Shown: piece after piece, positions 48,480-59,267 of the stretch | Layout: every line of letters starts with the position of its first letter | Position numbering within the stretch: the first letter of the stretch is position 1 | DNA from: OM182 bacterium | GTDB lineage: Bacteria; Pseudomonadota; Gammaproteobacteria; Pseudomonadales; Azotimanducaceae | Direction: 5' to 3' | DNA length: 64,000 nt | NCBI GenBank assembly: GCA_043512555.1 | Contig: CP121333.1 | Span: 2,309,955 to 2,373,954, forward strand | The notes under the pieces: generated by a model | What the model was told of the DNA's origin: nothing | Databases searched by the model: none | Seen by the model: the letters and a program-made list of their open reading frames with translations, nothing else | Position numbers and translations under genes: made by a program

Positions 48480-49889
48480 TCACGACGCCTTCTTGTAAGG
48501 CGGTCGCATGGCGGCGGCGAGTTTCGATACCGTCTTGGATTGGCTAAAGATGGACTTCGCATGGGAGAAGTTCTTGAAGCCATCGTATCCGTGATAAGAG
48601 CCCATACCGCTCGGTCCGACACCGCCGAAGGGCAGGTCTTCCTGGGCAACGTGCATGATGACGTCGTTGACGGTCACACCACCCGATGTCGTACGGGTCA
48701 GTACTTCTTTTTCTTCGGCAGAATCCTGACCGAAGTAGTAAAGGCCCAGAGGGCGGTCCCTGCCGTTTACGTAGTTAATCGTCTCGTTTACATCGTTGTA
48801 TTGCTTGACGGGCAAGAGTGGCCCAAAGATCTCATCCTGCATGATCTGCATGTCGTCAGTCGGATCAAGAACCAGCGTCGGTGGAATGCGGTGGTGCTGC
48901 TGCTGCGAGAAGTCCTCGCCAGCAGGGTTAAGCTCAACGACGTTAGCGCCTTTTTCTTTTGCGTCTTCGAGGTAGCCGTTCAGGCGATCAAAGTGACGTT
49001 CGTTGACGATAGATGTGTAGTCCGGGTTGTCCTTGATATCCGGAAACATCTTGGCAACTGAGTTGCGAGCGTGTTCAACGAATTCATCTTTGCTTTCTTC
49101 AGGCAGGAATACATAGTCCGGTGCGAGACAGATCTGGCCAGCATTCATGGTTTTACCTGCCATGATGTTCGTTGCTGCCAGTTCCATATCAGCGGACCGA
49201 CCGATGATGACCGGTGACTTACCACCGAGTTCCAGGGTCAGCGGTACCAGATTTTCTGCTGCTGCTCTCATGACATGCTTGGCAATCGATGTGGCGCCGG
49301 TAAACAGCATGTGATCGAAGGGTAGTCGTGAGAAGGCGCCGCCAACATCCGGTCCGCCGGTGCACACAGCCACTTCATCTTCATCAAACTTCGCAGCAAA
49401 CAATTCTTTCATCAGTTCTGATGTTTGCGCTGTGAACTCAGACGGCTTGATCATCGTGCGGTTGCCTGCTGCAAACACGCCGGCAAGCGGGGAAAAAGTA
49501 AGCTGGACCGGGAAATTCCATGGGCTGATGCAGCCTACTACGCCGAGTGGCTGGTATTCGATCCGGCCACGAGCGCCAAAGATGCCGAGCGGGAACATCA
49601 CCTTGCGGCGTTCCGGGCGCATCCATCTGCGTACATTCTTCTTGGCGTGCTCGAGCGGGCCGATCGCGCCGTCGATATCAGTCATTTTTGATTGATCCAT
49701 TGAGCGGTGGCCAAAGTCTGCTGCCATGGCCTCACATAGCTTAGGGCCATTGTTTTTCAGGATGTCGATTGCTCGATCGATCCGATCAATGCGTGTTTCG
49801 GCGGATACTTCGCCTTCTGCGAGATACGCCTGCTTCTGTCGATCCAGAATCGCCTGCATATCGGCCTGGGTAAGTTCTGCGTTAGCCAT
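48480..49889 (-). CDS. aldehyde dehydrogenase family protein (coniferyl-aldehyde-DH-like)
   Basis: ELGGKSP and QICLAPDY (catalytic Cys region) motifs, 469 aa. Confidence 0.9.
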   Translation of the reverse strand: MANAELTQADMQAILDRQKQAYLAEGEVSAETRIDRIDRAIDILKNNGPKLCEAMAADFGHRSMDQSKMTDIDGAIGPLEHAKKNVRRWMRPERRKVMFPLGIFGARGRIEYQPLGVVGCISPWNFPVQLTFSPLAGVFAAGNRTMIKPSEFTAQTSELMKELFAAKFDEDEVAVCTGGPDVGGAFSRLPFDHMLFTGATSIAKHVMRAAAENLVPLTLELGGKSPVIIGRSADMELAATNIMAGKTMNAGQICLAPDYVFLPEESKDEFVEHARNSVAKMFPDIKDNPDYTSIVNERHFDRLNGYLEDAKEKGANVVELNPAGEDFSQQQHHRIPPTLVLDPTDDMQIMQDEIFGPLLPVKQYNDVNETINYVNGRDRPLGLYYFGQDSAEEKEVLTRTTSGGVTVNDVIMHVAQEDLPFGGVGPSGMGSYHGYDGFKNFSHAKSIFSQSKTVSKLAAAMRPPYKKAS

Positions 49890-49973: not shown

Positions 49974-50540
49974 TCAATCTTTGTTCAGATCTTCGGGAAT
50001 TACAGCGTAAAGATGGGCATCGTGAGCCTTGCCGTGAAGCATGAGTCGGTTCTTCATTCGGCCCTCGTACTGGCCACCTGCGGCCTCTGCGACCTGTTGG
50101 CTGGCGCCGTTTTCTACCGACATCACGATCTCGATACGCTGCAGGTCAAGGTGGGCGAAGGCAAATTGAAGCAGCCCCTTTGTCGCCTCGGTGGCAATTC
50201 CCTGGCCTGTTGCGCTGGATCGGATCCAGTAGCCCAGATTGCCAACCGGATGTTCGTCGATAAGGTTGATACCACAGCCTCCAAAATAATCGTTGCCATC
50301 ATGGCTGAAGATACCAAAGCTGAAACCTTCTCCTTTGGCCCAGTTTTCCTGGGTTATCTCCAGCCACTTTCTTGAATCTTCAATGTCGTAGTCAGGATGG
50401 CACCAGGGCAGGAATCTGAACACCTCACTGATGGATGCTCGAGCAGCCTGATAAAGGCTTTGTTCATCGCCCTGCTGGTAGCGGCGTATGAGAAGACGAG
50501 ATGTCTCGAAGCGGGTTGGAATCTTCTCCGAAAGGTTCAA
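49974..50540 (-). CDS. GNAT family N-acetyltransferase (RimJ/RimL-like)
   Basis: TSRLLIRRY N-terminus and QGIATEA acetyl-CoA loop. The TTG start overlaps the stop of the upstream gene. Confidence 0.75.
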   Translation of the reverse strand: MNLSEKIPTRFETSRLLIRRYQQGDEQSLYQAARASISEVFRFLPWCHPDYDIEDSRKWLEITQENWAKGEGFSFGIFSHDGNDYFGGCGINLIDEHPVGNLGYWIRSSATGQGIATEATKGLLQFAFAHLDLQRIEIVMSVENGASQQVAEAAGGQYEGRMKNRLMLHGKAHDAHLYAVIPEDLNKD

Positions 50541-51898
50541 GCGAATTCCACAGTGGTATAGGTGAACACTTCAGTGTTCTGGTTCCAGCCGTCGGGGTGC
50601 AGGCCGGCCTTACGGCGGAGCTCCCGAACGAACTGGCCGGGATCTGGTAGCTGCGTCCATACTGATGGCAGGTAGGTTGACTGCCTGGCGCCTTCTTTAA
50701 TGATCAGACCGTCGATACCAGGACGAAGCGCCTGTTCCAGAGCGCTGCGCGAATCCACCAGCAGGGGCGTTGGTTTGCTCAGTATTGAAATGTGCACATC
50801 GAGCTGTTGGTATTCTTCGTGGCTGACCGCTCGGAACCTCGGATCCTTGAAGGCAGCTGCCTGGGCATTGTGAGCAACATCCAGAACCAGCGGGCGATGC
50901 GCGGTCAGAGACCCGATACAACCACGCAGCTGACCGTCGATGTTAAGCGTGACAAAGCTGGCGCGCTCTTCTTTGATGTGTGACTGAAAGCGGTCGAGGT
51001 TGAGATTGAATCGTTCTTCTCCTTCAAGCGGGCTGCGGATCGCTTCTCGAGCCAGTTGCAGCAGCGTTTGTCTCTCAGCCAGAGACCAGGACTCCTGCGC
51101 CGCAACCTTCTTCTCGCCGCTGATGGCCCATGCGCCATAACCGACGACCCGGCTGTGGTCACCCGCGGTATCACCGGAATTGCTGACCTCGACAGTGCTC
51201 ACGTCCATACCGTTTCGTTTCAGATGGTGCAGCAGTCCATTAATCGCTCTGCTGCCGCAGGCTTCCTGACCGATCAGACTCGAATCCAGTTGCTCTATCT
51301 TGCGGCAGGTGTTGGCATCGGTGCGCCGGGCTTGCTCGTAGGGCAGGTAGTGGCTGAGGTCAGTGCTGATAACGATCAGTGTGTCATCTTCGCCCCAGAG
51401 TGCACCGACTACATCGGCGACTTCTTCGCGACTAGCATCACCGACCACAACCGGTACCAGATCAAAGTCATCGATGACCCGTTGAAGAAACGGCAGATGA
51501 ACTTCAAGGCTATGTTCTTCGGCGTGCGCATCATCTCGATAGTGAACGGCGTGATGGCCTGCGATGCGGGATATCCGGTCCTTGGCCAGCGGGATATCAC
51601 CTAGCGGTGTGCGGAAGCTGGCAGAATAGGGTACTGCCATACCTTCAAATGCCACGCGATGAGACGGCCCAAGCAACACAACATGTTTGATCCTGGCATG
51701 GGCAGGCGAGAGCAGGCGATAGGCGCTACCGGCAACAGGGCCCGAGTAGGCATAGCCGGCATGGGGTGCAATCAGCGCTTTGGGTGCCTCAGAGGGAACC
51801 GGGTTACCTTCAAGATAGGTGTCGATCAGCGAGCTGAGAGCGACCGGATCATTCGGGTAGAATGTACCAGCAACGGCAGGTTCTCTTACAGCTTCCAT
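50537..51898 (-). CDS. AmmeMemoRadiSam system fusion protein: protein B (MEMO-like) N-terminal half plus protein A (AMMECR1) C-terminal half
   Basis: VAGTFYP..APHAGY..GPSH (MEMO-type) in the N-terminal half. LRGCIGS and later AMMECR1-like sequence in the C-terminal half. 453 aa. Confidence 0.8.
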   Translation of the reverse strand: MEAVREPAVAGTFYPNDPVALSSLIDTYLEGNPVPSEAPKALIAPHAGYAYSGPVAGSAYRLLSPAHARIKHVVLLGPSHRVAFEGMAVPYSASFRTPLGDIPLAKDRISRIAGHHAVHYRDDAHAEEHSLEVHLPFLQRVIDDFDLVPVVVGDASREEVADVVGALWGEDDTLIVISTDLSHYLPYEQARRTDANTCRKIEQLDSSLIGQEACGSRAINGLLHHLKRNGMDVSTVEVSNSGDTAGDHSRVVGYGAWAISGEKKVAAQESWSLAERQTLLQLAREAIRSPLEGEERFNLNLDRFQSHIKEERASFVTLNIDGQLRGCIGSLTAHRPLVLDVAHNAQAAAFKDPRFRAVSHEEYQQLDVHISILSKPTPLLVDSRSALEQALRPGIDGLIIKEGARQSTYLPSVWTQLPDPGQFVRELRRKAGLHPDGWNQNTEVFTYTTVEFA

Positions 51899-51939
51899 GG
51901 ATTGGCAGCGCCTGAAAATGATTGGGCATTGTAATTTTA

Positions 51940-53109
51940 ATGAGGGATGAAACCAACATCACAACCACTGACATCACAAAATGGGACTGGTCCGACAGCG
52001 GTCAAGCGGGCAAAGGCGCTTCAACTATCGCAACACCTGTCGCTTCAACAAAAGGAAAGTATTTCCATCAGCTTGAAGATGGCCGGGTGCAATGCGATCT
52101 CTGTCCTCGATTCTGCAAGTTGCGTGAAGGGCAGCGAGGCCTTTGCTTTGTCCGCGCCTGCGAGCAGGGTGAAGTTCGGCTGACGAGCTACGGCCGCTCA
52201 AGCGGATTCTGTATCGACCCCATTGAGAAGAAACCGCTGAATCATTTCCTGCCGGGAACCCCGGTTCTCTCATTCGGCACCGCAGGGTGCAATCTTGCCT
52301 GCAAATTCTGTCAGAACTGGGACATCAGCAAATCCCGCGAAATGGACAGCCTGGCAGATCAGGCATCGCCGGAAGCGCTGGCCAAAGCGGCGGTCGAGTC
52401 CGGTGCTCGCAGTATCGCTTTTACTTATAACGATCCGGTAATCTTCCATGAGTATGCCGTTGATGCCGCCCAGGCTGCGCGTGCGCAGGGTGTGAATTCA
52501 GTCGCGGTTACGGCGGGATATGTCTGTCCCGAGCCCAGGGCGGCGTTTTTTCAGCACATGGACGCGGCCAATATCGACTTGAAGGCATTTACCGAACGCT
52601 TTTATCACAAGGTCTGCGGTGGCCATCTGGCCCCGGTGCTAGATACGCTGATGTTCCTGAAGCATGAAACCAGCGTCTGGTTCGAGATCACGACGCTCCT
52701 GATACCGGGTGAGAATGACTCTGATGCGGAACTCGAGTCAATGACATCCTGGATTGCCGGGAACCTGGGCAGCGATGTCCCGCTGCACTTTTCTGCGTTC
52801 CACCCCGACTACCGCATGCGTGATCTGCCGAATACGCCGCCAGAGACACTCTCCCGTGCCCGAAACATCGCCATGTCTGCTGGCTTGCAGTTTGTTTACA
52901 CGGGCAATGTGCATGATCCGACGGGTGGTTCGACCTATTGTCCCGGGTGTGAGCGACCCTTGATCGAGCGGGACTGGTACGAGCTTGGCGAATGGCACCT
53001 TGACAGCCAGTCCTGCTGTTCTCATTGTGGTACCTGGATCGCGGGTGTGTTCGATGAACAGCCCGGTGATTGGGGTCGGCAACGTCAAATTGTCAGAATC
53101 AGAGAGTAG
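51940..53109 (+). CDS. AmmeMemoRadiSam system radical SAM enzyme
   Basis: CNLACKFCQNWD (CxxxCxxC) plus N- and C-terminal Cys clusters (CDLCPRFC, CPGC..CSHCG). Start at ATG 51940 (TTG 51922 is possible). Confidence 0.85.
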   Translation: MRDETNITTTDITKWDWSDSGQAGKGASTIATPVASTKGKYFHQLEDGRVQCDLCPRFCKLREGQRGLCFVRACEQGEVRLTSYGRSSGFCIDPIEKKPLNHFLPGTPVLSFGTAGCNLACKFCQNWDISKSREMDSLADQASPEALAKAAVESGARSIAFTYNDPVIFHEYAVDAAQAARAQGVNSVAVTAGYVCPEPRAAFFQHMDAANIDLKAFTERFYHKVCGGHLAPVLDTLMFLKHETSVWFEITTLLIPGENDSDAELESMTSWIAGNLGSDVPLHFSAFHPDYRMRDLPNTPPETLSRARNIAMSAGLQFVYTGNVHDPTGGSTYCPGCERPLIERDWYELGEWHLDSQSCCSHCGTWIAGVFDEQPGDWGRQRQIVRIRE

Positions 53110-55402
53110 TTTCGTGTCAAAAATTCAGTCTCTATCCGATATCACCTCGCAGATTGGTTCGCCGTCCGCGATACGCCTGGCGACGGACACCGTCTCCCGT
53201 GGCGTGGATAACTATCACGCTGATATAGAGATCTCCCCTGGCTTCACCTTGAAGCTTCGAGAAGCCATCGCACAGAATCTCAAGCTGCTGATGGCGGGCA
53301 AGACCATGATGTCGGGTAACTCCGAGATGATGCATGACTACCGGGACGCATACGCTGACCTTGTTCAGACCATGCTGCATCGGATCAAAACTGATTTCAC
53401 CGCGGGCCAGGTGCATGTGCTGCAGTTCGGCATTGTGAAGAACGTGATCGAGGAAGTGCGTGATGCGGTAGACCAGCAGTACGAGTCCCTCGAAGTGACG
53501 CTGGGTCAGCAACAGAGTTCAGGTTCTCGATCATTGCTGGCGACCCAGGAAAGGCTTGCGTGGTTTCGTGCGCACAGCGGCGAGTTCGTATATCGACTGA
53601 CGAGACTCTTCTTGCGCGCTATGCAACGGGAAGAAAACAATCAGCTGCGTGCCCTCAGAGAACAGTTCGTGGGAGATTTTTCTGCCGCGGTTAATCTGAT
53701 GTTCAATCCCATGCTGGCCGCGAGGTCGCCACGTGACCCGTTGCTTCAACTTGATCACTACGCGGTCTGGCCGGGCGAGGGTGCCAGGTTCGATGAGCTG
53801 AACCAGGCCTTTGAAGATATTTTTAAGAATCACTTCCCGGACCAGCTGACGCGCCCGCTGAAATCCGACAGCAAGCCTGGGCGGGGTGAGTCTGAAGTGT
53901 ACGACGCACTGGGAGGGCTGTTTGCCTCACAGTCGATGCTGGGTCCGGCTGAGGACCAGAAAGACCGTTTGCGCGAAGAGTTCTCCTGGCTGGATCACCC
54001 GGGCAATATGCGCCTGCTCTTCGATCCCAGTCTCCATGAGCAGCATCTTGCGCAGGAAGGGCTGGGTTTTGCTGGTACGCGAAAGCTGAAGTCTGAATTG
54101 AAAGTGCTTGAGAAGGTCGTTGCTGAACTGCGTAAAGCTGTGGGTGATGAAAGCACGCTGCGCAAGGTGCTCGCGAGCTATGCGCTGAGAGATAAGCTGC
54201 AGCAGTCCGATCTGGATGTCATCAGCATCGAGGATGCGCTTGAACTGGTCGCTGGCCGAGATCACCGTAAAGTAGCCCGCTTCCTCGACGCCGGTATGGA
54301 AAACGTCCACTTGCTTCAATCCAAGCTGGAAGACTGCGTCAAAGAGTTTGATCGGCTGTACAAAGAGTCCAGCGATGAACTCATGGTCAGGCTGCTCAGC
54401 GACTTCAGCCGCTACCGCCTGCATCTGAAGTTTTATCGCTTTGCCCATCGACTTTTTAATCGCATCTCGGTGATCACAAATCCCGATGAGATTCAGTTAG
54501 CGAAGGTTGGCGGTAACCTCTATCGACTGCTGAGTGGGGCAGAATCCAGGGACGCAGAGGACTCAGCGGAATCAGAAGTGGTGCATCACTGTGTAATCAA
54601 AGCCGATGTGCGCGGTTCCACCACGGTGACACGAGAACTGGCCAGGCAGGATTTGAACGCGGCGTCCTATTTCTCGCTTCGCTTCTTTAATCCGATCAAG
54701 GAAAGGCTTGGCCTTTACGGCGCAACCAAGGTCTTCATTGAAGGTGATGCCGTCATTCTCAGTATCAATGAGCTCAACGATGCACCGGACCAATGGTTCA
54801 GCGTGTCGCGAAGTTGCGGTCTTGCCAAAGAAGTACTGGATATCGTGAAGTCCAAGAACGCGCATTCCAAGCAGACTGGATTGCCAGCACTCGAGTTGGG
54901 TATCGGCATCTGCTACAGGGACGAACGACCCATGTTCCTGTTCGATGAGGATAAGCCCATTATGATATCGCCAGCGATTGGTGATGCTGACAGGATGTCC
55001 GGCTGTGCCTGGCAACTGCGCGATAATATTCAGCCAGGTCACTTCAATGTGGGTGTCTTCCTGCCCGACCCTGCAACCAGCCAGGAGGGCGAGAAAGGCC
55101 AGAAACTGCTTCGGTACAACGTCAACGGCATCGTTGTGGATGATGCTGCCTTCAAGAAATTGCAGGACGAGGTTCATTTCACGCAGGTGAAGGTGCGTTC
55201 TGGCGGCATCGAGGAAAACTTTTTTGTCGGGCAGTATCCGGACATTGTCGGCAAAAAACGGGACCTGGTGATACGGCAGGGCAAAGTAGGGGTCTGGCGC
55301 GGTGATGCCAGCGTTAAAGACGCTGAGACCGGCCTGTTCTTCTATGAAGTGCTGCCCAACACCAAATTCGCCGCCCAGATCGTGGAGATGGCTCAGAAAT
55401 AG
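53054..55402 (+). CDS. large uncharacterised protein with C-terminal class III nucleotidyl-cyclase-like domain
   Basis: The cyclase-homology pattern reads VIKADVRGSTTVT ... KVFIEGDAVILSI ... LELGIGICYRD ... ISPAIGDADRMSG. The N-terminal ~550 aa is helical and unrecognised. The start is uncertain (ATG 53054 or GTG 53114). Confidence 0.65.
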   Translation: MNSPVIGVGNVKLSESESSFVSKIQSLSDITSQIGSPSAIRLATDTVSRGVDNYHADIEISPGFTLKLREAIAQNLKLLMAGKTMMSGNSEMMHDYRDAYADLVQTMLHRIKTDFTAGQVHVLQFGIVKNVIEEVRDAVDQQYESLEVTLGQQQSSGSRSLLATQERLAWFRAHSGEFVYRLTRLFLRAMQREENNQLRALREQFVGDFSAAVNLMFNPMLAARSPRDPLLQLDHYAVWPGEGARFDELNQAFEDIFKNHFPDQLTRPLKSDSKPGRGESEVYDALGGLFASQSMLGPAEDQKDRLREEFSWLDHPGNMRLLFDPSLHEQHLAQEGLGFAGTRKLKSELKVLEKVVAELRKAVGDESTLRKVLASYALRDKLQQSDLDVISIEDALELVAGRDHRKVARFLDAGMENVHLLQSKLEDCVKEFDRLYKESSDELMVRLLSDFSRYRLHLKFYRFAHRLFNRISVITNPDEIQLAKVGGNLYRLLSGAESRDAEDSAESEVVHHCVIKADVRGSTTVTRELARQDLNAASYFSLRFFNPIKERLGLYGATKVFIEGDAVILSINELNDAPDQWFSVSRSCGLAKEVLDIVKSKNAHSKQTGLPALELGIGICYRDERPMFLFDEDKPIMISPAIGDADRMSGCAWQLRDNIQPGHFNVGVFLPDPATSQEGEKGQKLLRYNVNGIVVDDAAFKKLQDEVHFTQVKVRSGGIEENFFVGQYPDIVGKKRDLVIRQGKVGVWRGDASVKDAETGLFFYEVLPNTKFAAQIVEMAQK

Positions 55403-55610
55403 GTCGGCCAGAGCGCCTCAACACTCTTCCAGCCCGGCCCCGAGACCTGCCTTCAAACTGTATCTCAGCTGGGCGTAACCCATTATTTTCTATCGCTTTT
55501 TGTTTATAGCGACTATTCCTAATCGCCATCGTTTGCTGTGGTGTTTGTGATAAACTTGCCGCCTTTTTTTGAACCGCCCGGCGAGTCATTCGGGTTATTC
55601 GGAGTACATT

Positions 55611-57026
55611 GTGGGTAAAAATCTGTTTCAAAAGGTGTGGGACGACCACGTCATTCGTCAACTCGATAGCGGTCAGTATCAGGTCTTCATGGCTCTGCAT
55701 CTGATCCATGAGGTCACCAGCCCTCAGGCCTTTGGCATGTTGAAAGACAAGGGTCTTAGCGTGGCATATCCGGGCAGAACCTTTGCCACGGTCGATCACA
55801 TTATTCCAACGGATAATCAGTCTCGACCGCTGGCTGATGATATGGCGGAGAAAATGATCCAGGTGCTGGGTGATGCCACGGCAGAGCATGGTATCGAGTT
55901 CTTTCCACCTGAATCCGGCTCACAGGGCATCGTGCATGTGGTGGGTCCCGAGCTTGGACTGACGCAGCCAGGTATGACTATCTGCTGCGGAGACAGCCAT
56001 ACGGCCACCCACGGTGCTTTCGGTTGTATTGCGCTGGGTATAGGAACGAGTCAGGTTCGCGACGTGCTGGCCAGCCAGACGCTGGCGATGGACCCGCTGA
56101 AGGTTCGCCGCATCAATGTTGAAGGTAAATTGTCACCCGGCGTGACTGCCAAAGACGTCATTCTGCACATCATCAGGCTATTGGGCGTGAATGGCGGCGT
56201 GGGTTACGCCTACGAGTACGGCGGCTCCGCGATCGAAGCGATGACCATGGAAGAGCGCATGACCGTGTGCAACATGAGTATTGAAGGTGGCGCGCGTTGT
56301 GGTTACATCAACCCTGATGCAACCACCGTCGAATTCCTGCGGGGCAGAGAACGGGCACCCGATGATTTCGACAGTGCAGCGGAACGCTGGCTTTCTTATG
56401 CCAGTGATGCTGATGCAACCTACGACGATACCGTAACGATTGATGCTGCCGGGATTCAGCCCACGGTCACCTGGGGCGTTACACCTGCACAGGCCATTTC
56501 CATCGAAGAATCGATTCCATCGCCTGAAAGTGCAGAGGGTCTTGAAAGCAGCCTGATCAGTGATGCGCTGAGCTACATGAAGCTTGCATCGGATGCGCCA
56601 ATCAAAGGCACAAAGATTGACGTGGCATTCATCGGTAGCTGCACAAACGGTCGGCTGTCCGATTTTCGGGAAGTTGCCCGCATGATCGAGGGTCACAAGG
56701 TCGCTGGCAATGTTAGAGCGATTGCCGTGCCGGGTTCCGAGAAAGTTGATAAAGATGCGCGGGCTGAAGGTCTCCACAAAGTGTTTGAAAACGCCGGTTT
56801 TGAATGGCGCAAGCCAGGATGCTCCATGTGCCTGGCAATGAACCCGGACAAACTGGTCGGCGATGAAGTCTGTGCTTCAAGTTCTAACCGAAACTTCATT
56901 GGCAGACAGGGTTCATCAACGGGCCGCACGATTCTAATGAGCCCGATCATGGTAGCTGCCTCAGCCATTGAAGGGCAGGTGGCTGATGCACGGGAAGTGT
57001 TCGATATTAAAGGAGATGCAGCATGA
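55611..57026 (+). CDS. leuC: 3-isopropylmalate dehydratase large subunit
   Basis: [14 protein letters not shown] and CSMCLAMN Fe-S ligand motifs. GTG 55611 follows GGAG. Confidence 0.92.
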
Positions 57027-57610
57027 GTCTTGCAAAGATTGCCGGTCGTGGTGTGTATGTGAAGGGTAATGACATCGACACTGACCGAATCATTCCGGCG
57101 AGGTTTTTGAAGTGTGTGACCTTTGACGAACTCGGTCCGGCGCTTTTCTACGATGTGCGTTTCGATGCAGACGATAACCCCACTGGGCACGTGCTGGATG
57201 CGCCGGCACACCAGGGTGCGGAGATTCTGATTTCAGATGACAACTTCGGATGTGGCTCCAGCCGAGAACATGCACCGCAGGCCATCCAGAAATTCGGCCT
57301 CAAGGCGGTTATCGCCGGCTCATTTGCGGAGATTTTCCAGGGTAACTGCACGACATTGGGTATTCCCTGTGTGGTCATGGCAGACGAGCACCGGGCAAAA
57401 CTCGCTGCAGAAATCGAGCGCAACCCGGACGCTGATATCATTATTGATCTTGAAGCGGGTCAGGTGATCTGCGCTAACGAGATTTTTCCCGCAGGTATGA
57501 AAGATTCAACCCGTGAAGCGTTTTTAGCGGGTACTTATGATCCACTCGACAACCTGTTGAGTGCGCGGAATGAGATCGACAAGACAGCGGAGAAGCTGGG
57601 CTACGCCTGA
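57023..57610 (+). CDS. leuD: 3-isopropylmalate dehydratase small subunit
   Basis: [11 protein letters not shown] motif. 4-nt overlap with leuC. Confidence 0.92.
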
Positions 57611-57620
57611 GGATTCTGAC

Positions 57621-59267
57621 ATGGCCAGAAAAAAAATCGAGATCTACGACACCACGCTGCGAGACGGCAACCAGGGCGAGGGCGTCAACCTCTCTCTCGG
57701 CGACAAGCTGGACATCACGCGCGAGCTGGATGCAGTCGGTGTTGACTATGTAGAAGGTGGCTGGCCTGGATCCAACCCCAAGGACGATGAGTATTTTCAT
57801 CGCGTGCGGGACATGGACCTCGATCATCTGAAGATCGTCGCTTTTGGTTCGACCCATCGTTCTGACTCCCTGCCATCTGAAGACTTTTTCCTGCAGAAAC
57901 TGATAGCCGCCCAAGCGGACGTAACCTGTATCTTCGGCAAGACCTGGGATTTACACGTTGAGCAGGCACTGCGCGTCTCGCCGGATCGTAATCTTGAGAT
58001 GATTCAGAATTCGGTAGCGCATTTAAGTGAAGCCACCGGCAAACCGGTGTTCTACGATGCCGAACATTTTTTTGACGGATTCAAGAGCGACCCTGGTTAC
58101 GCGCTGGCAACCATTGAGGCCGCTGTTGAAGGAGGCGCCTCTCGCGTCATCCTGTGTGACACCAACGGTGGCGTAATGCCCCATGAGGTAGCGAGCGCCG
58201 TACGTGAGTTACGAAAGGAAGTGCCCGGCATTAAGCTGGGTATACATGTGCACAACGATGGTGGTCTTGCCGTCGCCAACACCCTTCGTGCGATCGAAGA
58301 GGGCGTGGTGCAGGTTCATGGCACGATCAATGGGATTGGTGAGCGCTGCGGCAATGTCGATCTGACTTCTATTCTCGGGAATCTTGAACTCAAGATGGGT
58401 TATGACTGTCTGCCGGAAGGCCGGATCAAGGGGCTGACGAATCTTTCCCGCAAGGTCTGGGAATACCTCGGTATTGACGGGCCGTCAGGTCAGCCTTTTG
58501 TGGGCCCGAGCGCGTTCGCGCACAAGGGCGGCGTCCATGTTTCTGCAGTGCAGCGTAACCCTGAGACCTATGAGCATATCGAGCCTTCACTGGTGGGTAA
58601 CTCTCGAAAGATCTTGATCAGCGAGCTCGCAGGGGGGTCTAACCTCAAAGCGAAGCTGTCCAATCGCTACCCGGAACTTGAAGATAACGATCGGGTGAAG
58701 GCAATCCTGAATGATATTCAGGACAAGGAACACGCCGGTTACTCCTTCGAAAACGCCGATGGCAGTTTTGATCTGGTGGTCCGCAGGCACATCGGGAAGT
58801 ACAAACCGGTGTTCGAGCCGATCTATTACAGAATTTACTCACCCAGCAACGAAGAAAACACCGAGTCTCCCGGGCTGATCGAAGCCAGCGTCAAGGTTCG
58901 TATTGAAGACCAGGTAGAACTTTGTGCCGCGGAAGGTAACGGGCCGGTAGATGCACTGAACAAGGCGCTGCAAAAAGCGTTGCTCGAAAGATTCCCTGTC
59001 ATCGCAGACCTGCATCTCCGCGACTTCAGCGTGAAGGTTGTGAATAGTACAAAAGAGACGGCTGCCAAGGTGCGTGTTTATCTTGAACACAGTTTTGAAG
59101 GGGAAATGTTCGGCACGATCGGTGTTAATGAAGACATCATTCAGGCCAGTTGGAGCGCTTTGATTGAAGCTTATCAATATGCGTTGATGCAGCACGCGGA
59201 TTTCAGGGCGGAACTGCCGGGGGACGACCGGGTGGCGGGAGCCAGCGAAAATCAGCCAGCTCACTGA
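57621..59267 (+). CDS. cimA: citramalate synthase (LeuA-family, CimA type)
   Basis: IYDTTLRDGNQGEG and HVHNDGG motifs, about 548 aa with a regulatory C-terminal domain. The CimA-versus-LeuA call rests on N-terminal and length similarity as I recall them. Confidence 0.7.
   Translation: MARKKIEIYDTTLRDGNQGEGVNLSLGDKLDITRELDAVGVDYVEGGWPGSNPKDDEYFHRVRDMDLDHLKIVAFGSTHRSDSLPSEDFFLQKLIAAQADVTCIFGKTWDLHVEQALRVSPDRNLEMIQNSVAHLSEATGKPVFYDAEHFFDGFKSDPGYALATIEAAVEGGASRVILCDTNGGVMPHEVASAVRELRKEVPGIKLGIHVHNDGGLAVANTLRAIEEGVVQVHGTINGIGERCGNVDLTSILGNLELKMGYDCLPEGRIKGLTNLSRKVWEYLGIDGPSGQPFVGPSAFAHKGGVHVSAVQRNPETYEHIEPSLVGNSRKILISELAGGSNLKAKLSNRYPELEDNDRVKAILNDIQDKEHAGYSFENADGSFDLVVRRHIGKYKPVFEPIYYRIYSPSNEENTESPGLIEASVKVRIEDQVELCAAEGNGPVDALNKALQKALLERFPVIADLHLRDFSVKVVNSTKETAAKVRVYLEHSFEGEMFGTIGVNEDIIQASWSALIEAYQYALMQHADFRAELPGDDRVAGASENQPAH

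Follow-up and report, generated by a model that had tools for sequence, protein, structure and literature searches.

AMMECR1 was reported in 2007 to keep a persistent gene neighbourhood with a radical S-adenosylmethionine (SAM) enzyme and with the ring-opening-dioxygenase-like protein Memo (PMC2034487). In the same work, Balaji and Aravind already described AMMECR1-Memo fusions, predicted an RNA-base-modification role for the neighbourhood and proposed the motifs RGChG and DxRa as the AMMECR1 active site (PMC2034487). A literature search found no experimental function for the trio, which is conserved from archaea to humans (Memo1, AMMECR1) without a known substrate, so that a reproducible additional partner would be valuable. 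In 2019 Burroughs and colleagues reportedly tied Memo systems to nucleotide-base and isoprenoid modification. Here we describe one such AmmeMemoRadiSam cassette in a stretch of 64,000 nucleotides from OM182 bacterium (GenBank assembly GCA_043512555.1, contig CP121333.1, positions 2,309,955 to 2,373,954), referred to below as the window, in whose numbering all coordinates are given. A sequence-only reading of the locus had proposed two neighbours, a GNAT N-acetyltransferase and a large uncharacterised protein (LARGE), as candidate additional components or substrates of the system. Our analysis makes it probable instead that the locus is a canonical cytoplasmic cassette lying within inherited synteny, and that GNAT and LARGE are not dedicated components of it.

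The core of the locus is a canonical AmmeMemoRadiSam cassette and an ordinary member of this known, unsolved system. Its three components adjoin each other in the window and all exceed their family cut-offs, with 263.3 bits for the Memo (protein B) domain against TIGR04336 (cut-off 26), 196.1 bits for the AMMECR1 (protein A) domain against TIGR04335 (cut-off 99) and 646.1 bits for the radical SAM protein against TIGR04337 (cut-off 220). The expected motifs can be read from the translations: CNLACKFC (CX3CX2C) in the radical SAM protein, and LRGCIGS and DPRF, matching RGChG and DxRa, in the AMMECR1 part of the fusion. The fusion of B and A in one 453-aa polypeptide, as proposed from the sequence, was confirmed by both domains scoring above cut-off. 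Also borne out were the overlap of the fusion stop with the TTG start of the GNAT gene, which share the 4 nt TTGA at 50537-50540 (the fusion ends in ...GAATTCGCTTGA), and the divergent radical SAM gene, with 41 bp between the start codons at 51898 and 51940. If the radical SAM gene began instead at the in-frame TTG at 51922, the spacer would shrink to 23 bp; neither candidate start has an obvious Shine-Dalgarno sequence ahead of it.

Compared with the described system, the core shows no differences and only the spacer is unusually short, at 41 bp against approximately 75-260 nt (between alignment ends) in most relatives, with a range up to approximately 1,060 nt. The fusion and the divergent radical SAM gene had been put forward as notable features, a view that does not hold: both are shared with many other Gammaproteobacteria, the layout is common and already published, and the fusion was noted in 2007 (PMC2034487). 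Ahead of the part matched by the TIGR04337 model, the radical SAM protein has about 40 additional N-terminal residues (MRDETNITTTDITKWDWSD..., window 51940-52060), in which no recognisable domain or signal was found. An exported version of the trio was considered and rejected, since on inspection of the translations the N-termini of the trio proteins begin directly in their domains, without a signal or twin-arginine (Tat) motif.

The core consists of the fused Memo-AMMECR1 protein and the divergently transcribed PflA-like radical SAM enzyme, both probably cytoplasmic. In the proposed mechanism, the radical SAM enzyme would cleave SAM at its CX3CX2C cluster to give a 5'-deoxyadenosyl radical, which would act on a substrate of the kinds predicted in publications: an RNA base, a nucleotide base or an isoprenoid. 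The remaining chemistry would fall to the Memo domain, which depends on a metal, and to the AMMECR1 domain with its Cys. In this bacterial family the fused cassette lies within a probably older syntenic block, ALDH-GNAT<>LARGE-leuC-leuD-cimA (ALDH, aldehyde dehydrogenase; <>, divergent transcription), with both cassette arms co-oriented with the flanking genes. LARGE would represent a stand-alone family of cyclase-fold signalling proteins, which probably produce or bind a nucleotide independently.

The same 101 genomes of the window's GTDB family were used in each search, and 38 loci were fetched, onto which the window proteins were mapped with tblastn. Of the 101 genomes, 19 have LARGE, 32 have TIGR04337 and 15 have both. 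LARGE lies directly downstream of the radical SAM gene on the same strand in 13 of these 15; one of the remaining two has a 1.5-kb insert between the two genes and the other has them on separate contigs. The cassettes fall into two classes. Class I, in which a single frame encodes fused B and A (the window and 13 other loci, 14 in all), is always inside the block ALDH-GNAT-[BA]<>[rSAM]-LARGE-leuC-leuD-cimA, where rSAM denotes the radical SAM gene. Class II, with separate B and A genes (12 loci), is located elsewhere and is without GNAT and LARGE, and no genome among the loci examined (L028-L062) has both classes together.

In 9-10 genera of this GTDB family the fused cassette stands between GNAT and LARGE, so that their co-occurrence with the trio extends beyond this genome. 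In the tree of radical SAM proteins, 14 of the 16 from class I group together as one clade (support 93/91), with the other two (G235, G267) unresolved, and 11 of 13 class-II sequences form one weakly supported clade (84/62). The single class-I clade indicates that most of the class-I context traces to a single ancestral event, and the recurrence in 9-10 genera is therefore not independent evidence. The proposal that GNAT and LARGE are system components thus finds partial support, in a co-occurrence that is real but belongs to one family and reads best as inherited synteny.

ALDH orthologues (62-89 % identity) adjoin GNAT or BA in 13 family loci. Downstream of LARGE, leuC, leuD and a cimA/leuA-like gene recur throughout the family, as in L005, L031, L032, L039, L046, L055 and L058, and are also found where the trio is missing; in L061, leuC and leuD are present before the contig ends. 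The steadiest neighbour of GNAT is the aldehyde dehydrogenase rather than the trio, and GNAT orthologues of at least 45 % identity, found in 17 of the 101 family genomes, follow the block with or without the trio. In relatives the gap between the radical SAM gene and LARGE is 30-340 nt, and the gap between A and GNAT is 0-45 nt in most of them, with a maximum of 470 nt. In several family genomes an extra gene of about 1.2 kb stands between LARGE and leuC.

Parts of the block were also found without each other. In G243, G262 and G290, ALDH-GNAT<>LARGE are divergent neighbours (L058, L059 and L060) across a spacer of approximately 430-520 bp with no cassette, and searches of the three whole genomes, 96-99 % complete, recovered neither B/A nor TIGR04337. 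Neither tblastn nor blastn found cassette remnants in the three spacers, so that loss and an insertion that never took place are both compatible with them. Two congeners of G243 have the cassette, which makes cassette loss more parsimonious for that genome. LARGE without the trio was likewise found in G179, of the same family, and in G147, of another family. Single parts are missing from G253, which has GNAT-BA<>rSAM-leuCD without LARGE, and from G274, which has LARGE-rSAM<>BA-ALDH without GNAT.

Beyond the family, the analysis drew on 401 genomes sampled across the class, with 400 genomes in the tally for the Memo-AMMECR1 query. This query matched 189 of 400 (47 %), a tally that includes the unpublished genomes G334, G436 and G602, which are used in no other claim, and an uninterrupted fused B-A frame was found in at least 15 other genomes of the sample. 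At 20 trio loci in other gammaproteobacterial families (15 fused, 5 split), no GNAT or LARGE relative was found within 5-6 kb, and no other conserved neighbour. The radical SAM gene is divergent from BA in 13 of the 15 other-family loci that have it inside the flank, the exceptions being L113, where it is co-oriented, and L118, where its direction with respect to Memo stayed unresolved. Seventeen other genomes of the class sample, from 10 families, carry LARGE. Fifteen of these LARGE loci were fetched together with flanks of up to 8 kb, and no relative of the radical SAM enzyme, Memo, AMMECR1 or GNAT was found in them, nor any neighbour that is conserved. A survey of what flanks the trio, as had been suggested, therefore recovers the linkage with GNAT and LARGE in the family and none at these 20 trio and 15 LARGE loci. 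Linkage of the two partners with the trio in independent lineages did not emerge: it was seen in one GTDB family only, and the partners persist without the trio.

Several observations weigh against inherited synteny as the whole explanation. Within the family, the fused cassette was never seen outside the ALDH/GNAT...LARGE/leuCD context, GNAT lies within about 0-45 nt of the fusion in 8 of 11 related loci, and the genes in the window are packed very tightly, the cassette overlapping GNAT by 4 nt and lying 4 nt from LARGE. The trio is also found in 15 of 19 LARGE-bearing family genomes against 32 of 101 overall, and in all 17 LARGE-bearing genomes of the class sample, unlinked, against the 189/400 background, figures uncorrected for phylogeny and lifestyle; this enrichment could reflect a functional tie without the need for adjacency. 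GNAT and/or LARGE might accordingly be genuine accessory parts of a lineage-specific fused-type AmmeMemoRadiSam system, for example with GNAT acetylating the trio's product or substrate, or with LARGE as a client modified by the radical SAM enzyme or a sensor of the trio product. The TTGA overlap, the 4-nt gap and the constant position of class-I cassettes between GNAT and LARGE in 9-10 genera would suit this, as would the trio in 34 of 42 LARGE-bearing genomes overall and the relatedness of the radical SAM enzyme to protein-activating PflA-type enzymes. However, eight LARGE genomes that are 93-100 % complete have no radical SAM gene, GNAT and LARGE stay side by side without the cassette in L058, L059 and L060, and LARGE is missing from 17 of 32 trio-bearing genomes in the family and from 171 of 188 in the class sample (G000 left out). 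The association was seen in no other family examined, the clade of 14 of 16 class-I radical SAM proteins makes the block approximately one evolutionary observation, and a glycyl-radical-type motif was not recognised in LARGE. We therefore regard accessory parts as an unlikely explanation, and inherited synteny around a canonical cassette as the probable one.

A tie between LARGE and the trio even where they are unlinked, in which LARGE uses, senses or depends on the trio product, such as a modified nucleotide, draws on the same enrichment and appears quite improbable. A phylum-level replicate weakens the enrichment: its five LARGE-bearing genomes all belong to one family, only two of the five have the radical SAM gene, and both of these genes are on another contig than LARGE, one of them interrupted. 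In five of the eight LARGE genomes without the radical SAM gene, Memo-AMMECR1 was also searched for and not found. Eight trio-less genomes out of 42 argue that LARGE does not depend on the trio. Very improbable, in our view, is a co-regulated metabolic island formed by the whole block ALDH-GNAT-BA<>rSAM-LARGE-leuCD-cimA, for instance in branched-chain/keto-acid and aldehyde metabolism, in which the trio would make or repair a cofactor or metabolite used by its neighbours. The order with leuC-leuD-cimA and ALDH is conserved across the family and no strong terminator was predicted to separate LARGE from leuC, as such an island would have it. Yet leuCD-cimA and ALDH are housekeeping-type genes that are present also where the trio, GNAT or LARGE is missing, trios elsewhere have unrelated neighbours, and gaps of 84-166 nt together with inserted genes in L029, L032, L039 and L046 speak against one operon.

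The spacing within the window suggests local coupling of expression. GNAT is probably translationally coupled to the fusion in this genome through the TTGA overlap, and LARGE, 4 nt from the radical SAM gene, may be read through from it. In a scan of the locus for promoter and terminator consensus sequences, the number of matches was within chance, and the only plus-strand promoter-like match, at 51834-51863, lies inside the B-A gene.

The GNAT had been called RimJ/RimL-type, a label that stands at the level of the domain and not beyond it. The protein scores 95.5 bits against PF13302 (cut-off 25.4), the Pfam domain family of the RimJ/RimL acetyltransferases, and is similar to them in size (approximately 180-190 aa). 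Unlike them, it falls under both equivalog cut-offs, with 50.3 bits against the RimL model NF007539 (cut-off 184) and 25.9 bits against the RimJ model NF008072 (cut-off 190). Because it is far below both, it is not a RimL or RimJ orthologue.

The reading frame of LARGE is open from 52985 to 55402 on the plus strand. A protein of about 780 aa with possible overlap had been proposed to follow the radical SAM gene; the long frame does follow, but its length and the overlap needed revision. Because homologues are 760-770 aa long and at least 90 % of 64 aligned sequences place the initial Met at the GTG codon at 53114, this is the most likely start, giving a protein of 762 aa without overlap that begins 4 nt after the stop codon of the radical SAM gene (TAG, 53107-53109). 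Whole-protein scans of LARGE gave no Pfam or NCBIfam match. A search of a library of 1.84 billion proteins placed it in a well-defined family, with 391 cluster representatives matching at E≤0.001. A PDB sequence search with the full-length profile returned nothing at E≤10, and the look-alikes of a LARGE homologue were unnamed clusters, one of them automatically named 'putative guanylate cyclase'.

An AlphaFold model of LARGE was built on the 64-sequence alignment, with a predicted local distance difference test score (pLDDT) of 90. Its helical N-terminal domain of 485 residues (AlphaFold2 (AF2) pLDDT 90, predicted template modelling score 0.90) had no Foldseek match at E≤0.001, and its best VIA hits, to FtsX and KaiA-like helical bundles at Z 8.2, were within noise, so no fold was assigned. 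Residues 487-753 matched the cyclases CyaB (3r5g_B, VIA Z 16.0, root-mean-square deviation 3.6, 182 residues aligned) and Cya2 (2w01_A, Z 15.6), and Foldseek matched the domain to CyaC (1wc4) with E 8e-7, confirming at the level of fold the earlier 'cyclase-like' label. VIA listed 54 chains with Z≥8 for this domain, and cyclases rank over GGDEF domains; Pycsar pyrimidine cyclases reached Z of about 14 and GGDEF domains only about 9.

The likeness of LARGE residues 487-753 to class III cyclases (CyaB 3r5g, Cya2 2w01, CyaC 1wc0-6 and Rv1625c) lies in the fold, at Z 14-16, in both metal-binding Asp positions and in a conserved Arg of the GxxxxAxR region. The fold is also held in common with the Pycsar pyrimidine cyclases 8jsf and 7r65 and the cyclase-like ATP-binding protein 6yii. 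In a weak profile alignment with Cya2 (E 0.26), D498 (KADVRGST) aligns with the D of SDLRGFT and D545 (EGDAV) with the D of MGDG. Both residues fall on the two metal-binding aspartates, which class III cyclases have at the end of beta1 and in the beta2-beta3 hairpin, and are conserved in at least 90 % of sequences, as is R627. In contrast to class III cyclases, PF00211 was matched neither by whole LARGE at E≤0.01 nor by any C-terminal domain out of 23 at E≤10; sequence identity amounts to 11-16 %. The residue four before the second Asp (D-4) specifies adenine or guanine in canonical class III cyclases. At what we take, from the known motifs, to be the equivalent positions, LARGE appears to differ again: D-4 is the nearly invariant F541, a Phe in place of the purine-specifying Lys or Glu, and the sequence corresponding to NxAxR is G-D-A-D-R, in which conservation is limited to A625, D626 and R627 and does not extend to the transition-state Asn. 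This suggests a domain that is probably catalytic or nucleotide-binding, with non-canonical specificity.

The domain architecture sets LARGE further apart from class III cyclases, with an uncharacterised helical domain of 485 aa ahead of the cyclase domain and, in many relatives, an LspA-like membrane domain. Longer relatives of approximately 900-1,070 aa, both database proteins and genomic open reading frames (ORFs), carry this N-terminal LspA-like Peptidase_A8 domain (PF01252). Such fusions were observed outside the family at L088:8273-11053(-), L092:382-3180(+), L073:709-3561(+) and L094:7331-10534(+), and among the database proteins P0136, P0145, P0151, P0152, P0166 and P0174. We know of no description of an architecture with LspA-like, helical and cyclase-like domains. 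The two architectures fit a signalling protein with membrane-anchored and soluble forms; the family as proposed would join the helical domain to a class III cyclase-like domain, often with the LspA-like membrane domain in other lineages. LARGE was also considered as a glycyl-radical client of the PflA-like radical SAM enzyme, a role that was rejected: its fold is not PFL-like and no glycyl-radical motif was recognised. The LARGE copy of G201 (L055:5816-8002(-)) no longer has either metal-binding Asp or the conserved Arg (NVNFRKTA, ITGSGM and AEKLSS); it is still downstream of the radical SAM gene and may be a pseudo-enzyme.

Features of the AmmeMemoRadiSam locus and its flanks in the window (ORF map, map of open reading frames)
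Feature	Position	Strand	Evidence
Aldehyde dehydrogenase (ALDH) gene	48480..49889	-	ORF map; 84 nt downstream of GNAT
GNAT N-acetyltransferase (Acetyltransf_3), 188 aa, TTG start	49974..50540	-	PF13302 E 5.7e-27
Memo(B)-AMMECR1(A) fusion, 453 aa, ATG 51898	50537..51898	-	TIGR04336 + TIGR04335
AMMECR1 / protein A domain, fusion residues 278-452	50543..51067	-	TIGR04335 3e-58; PF01871 1.5e-44
Memo / AmmeMemoRadiSam protein B domain, fusion residues 5-258	51125..51886	-	TIGR04336 2.1e-78; PF01875 3.1e-51
Spacer between divergent start codons, 41 bp	51899..51939		
AmmeMemoRadiSam radical SAM enzyme (AmrS type), 389 aa from ATG	51940..53109	+	TIGR04337 1.1e-194
LARGE N-terminal all-helical domain (predicted), residues 1-485	53114..54568	+	AF2 model
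LARGE C-terminal class III nucleotidyl-cyclase-like domain, residues 487-753	54572..55372	+	VIA, Foldseek
leuC-leuD-cimA-like genes, conserved downstream flank of LARGE in the GTDB family	55569..59267	+	ORF map

Two further arrangements were observed in the family. In L032 (G278:C86:1-17000), the radical SAM gene, LARGE and leuCD are present and no Memo or AMMECR1 gene was found in the 7.6 kb upstream of the radical SAM gene; a GNAT orthologue is on another contig (C34) of the same genome. This is either a rearrangement or an artefact in the assembly of a metagenome-assembled genome. A second, divergent TIGR04337-type radical SAM gene was found at G272:C17:7097-8092(-) and G240:C41:6221-7216(-) (L056 and L057), in two genomes of the same genus. 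Both (about 39 % identity, 332-333 bits) contain one in-frame TGA at a similar place, which could be a selenocysteine codon or the mark of a shared pseudogene.

The two proposed partners do not generalise, which spares wet-lab effort on them as components of the system. The survey also describes cleanly how, in one bacterial family, the cassette is either fused or split, the two types being mutually exclusive. LARGE is useful in its own right as an uncharacterised cyclase-fold family of approximately 390 clusters with no Pfam model, many members of which are fused to an LspA-like domain. The modest enrichment of the trio in LARGE genomes, uncorrected for phylogeny, deserves a proper test. If a tie between LARGE and the trio were true, the adjacency in this family would be the only place where the tie turned physical, and LARGE would be the first candidate downstream partner for the trio.

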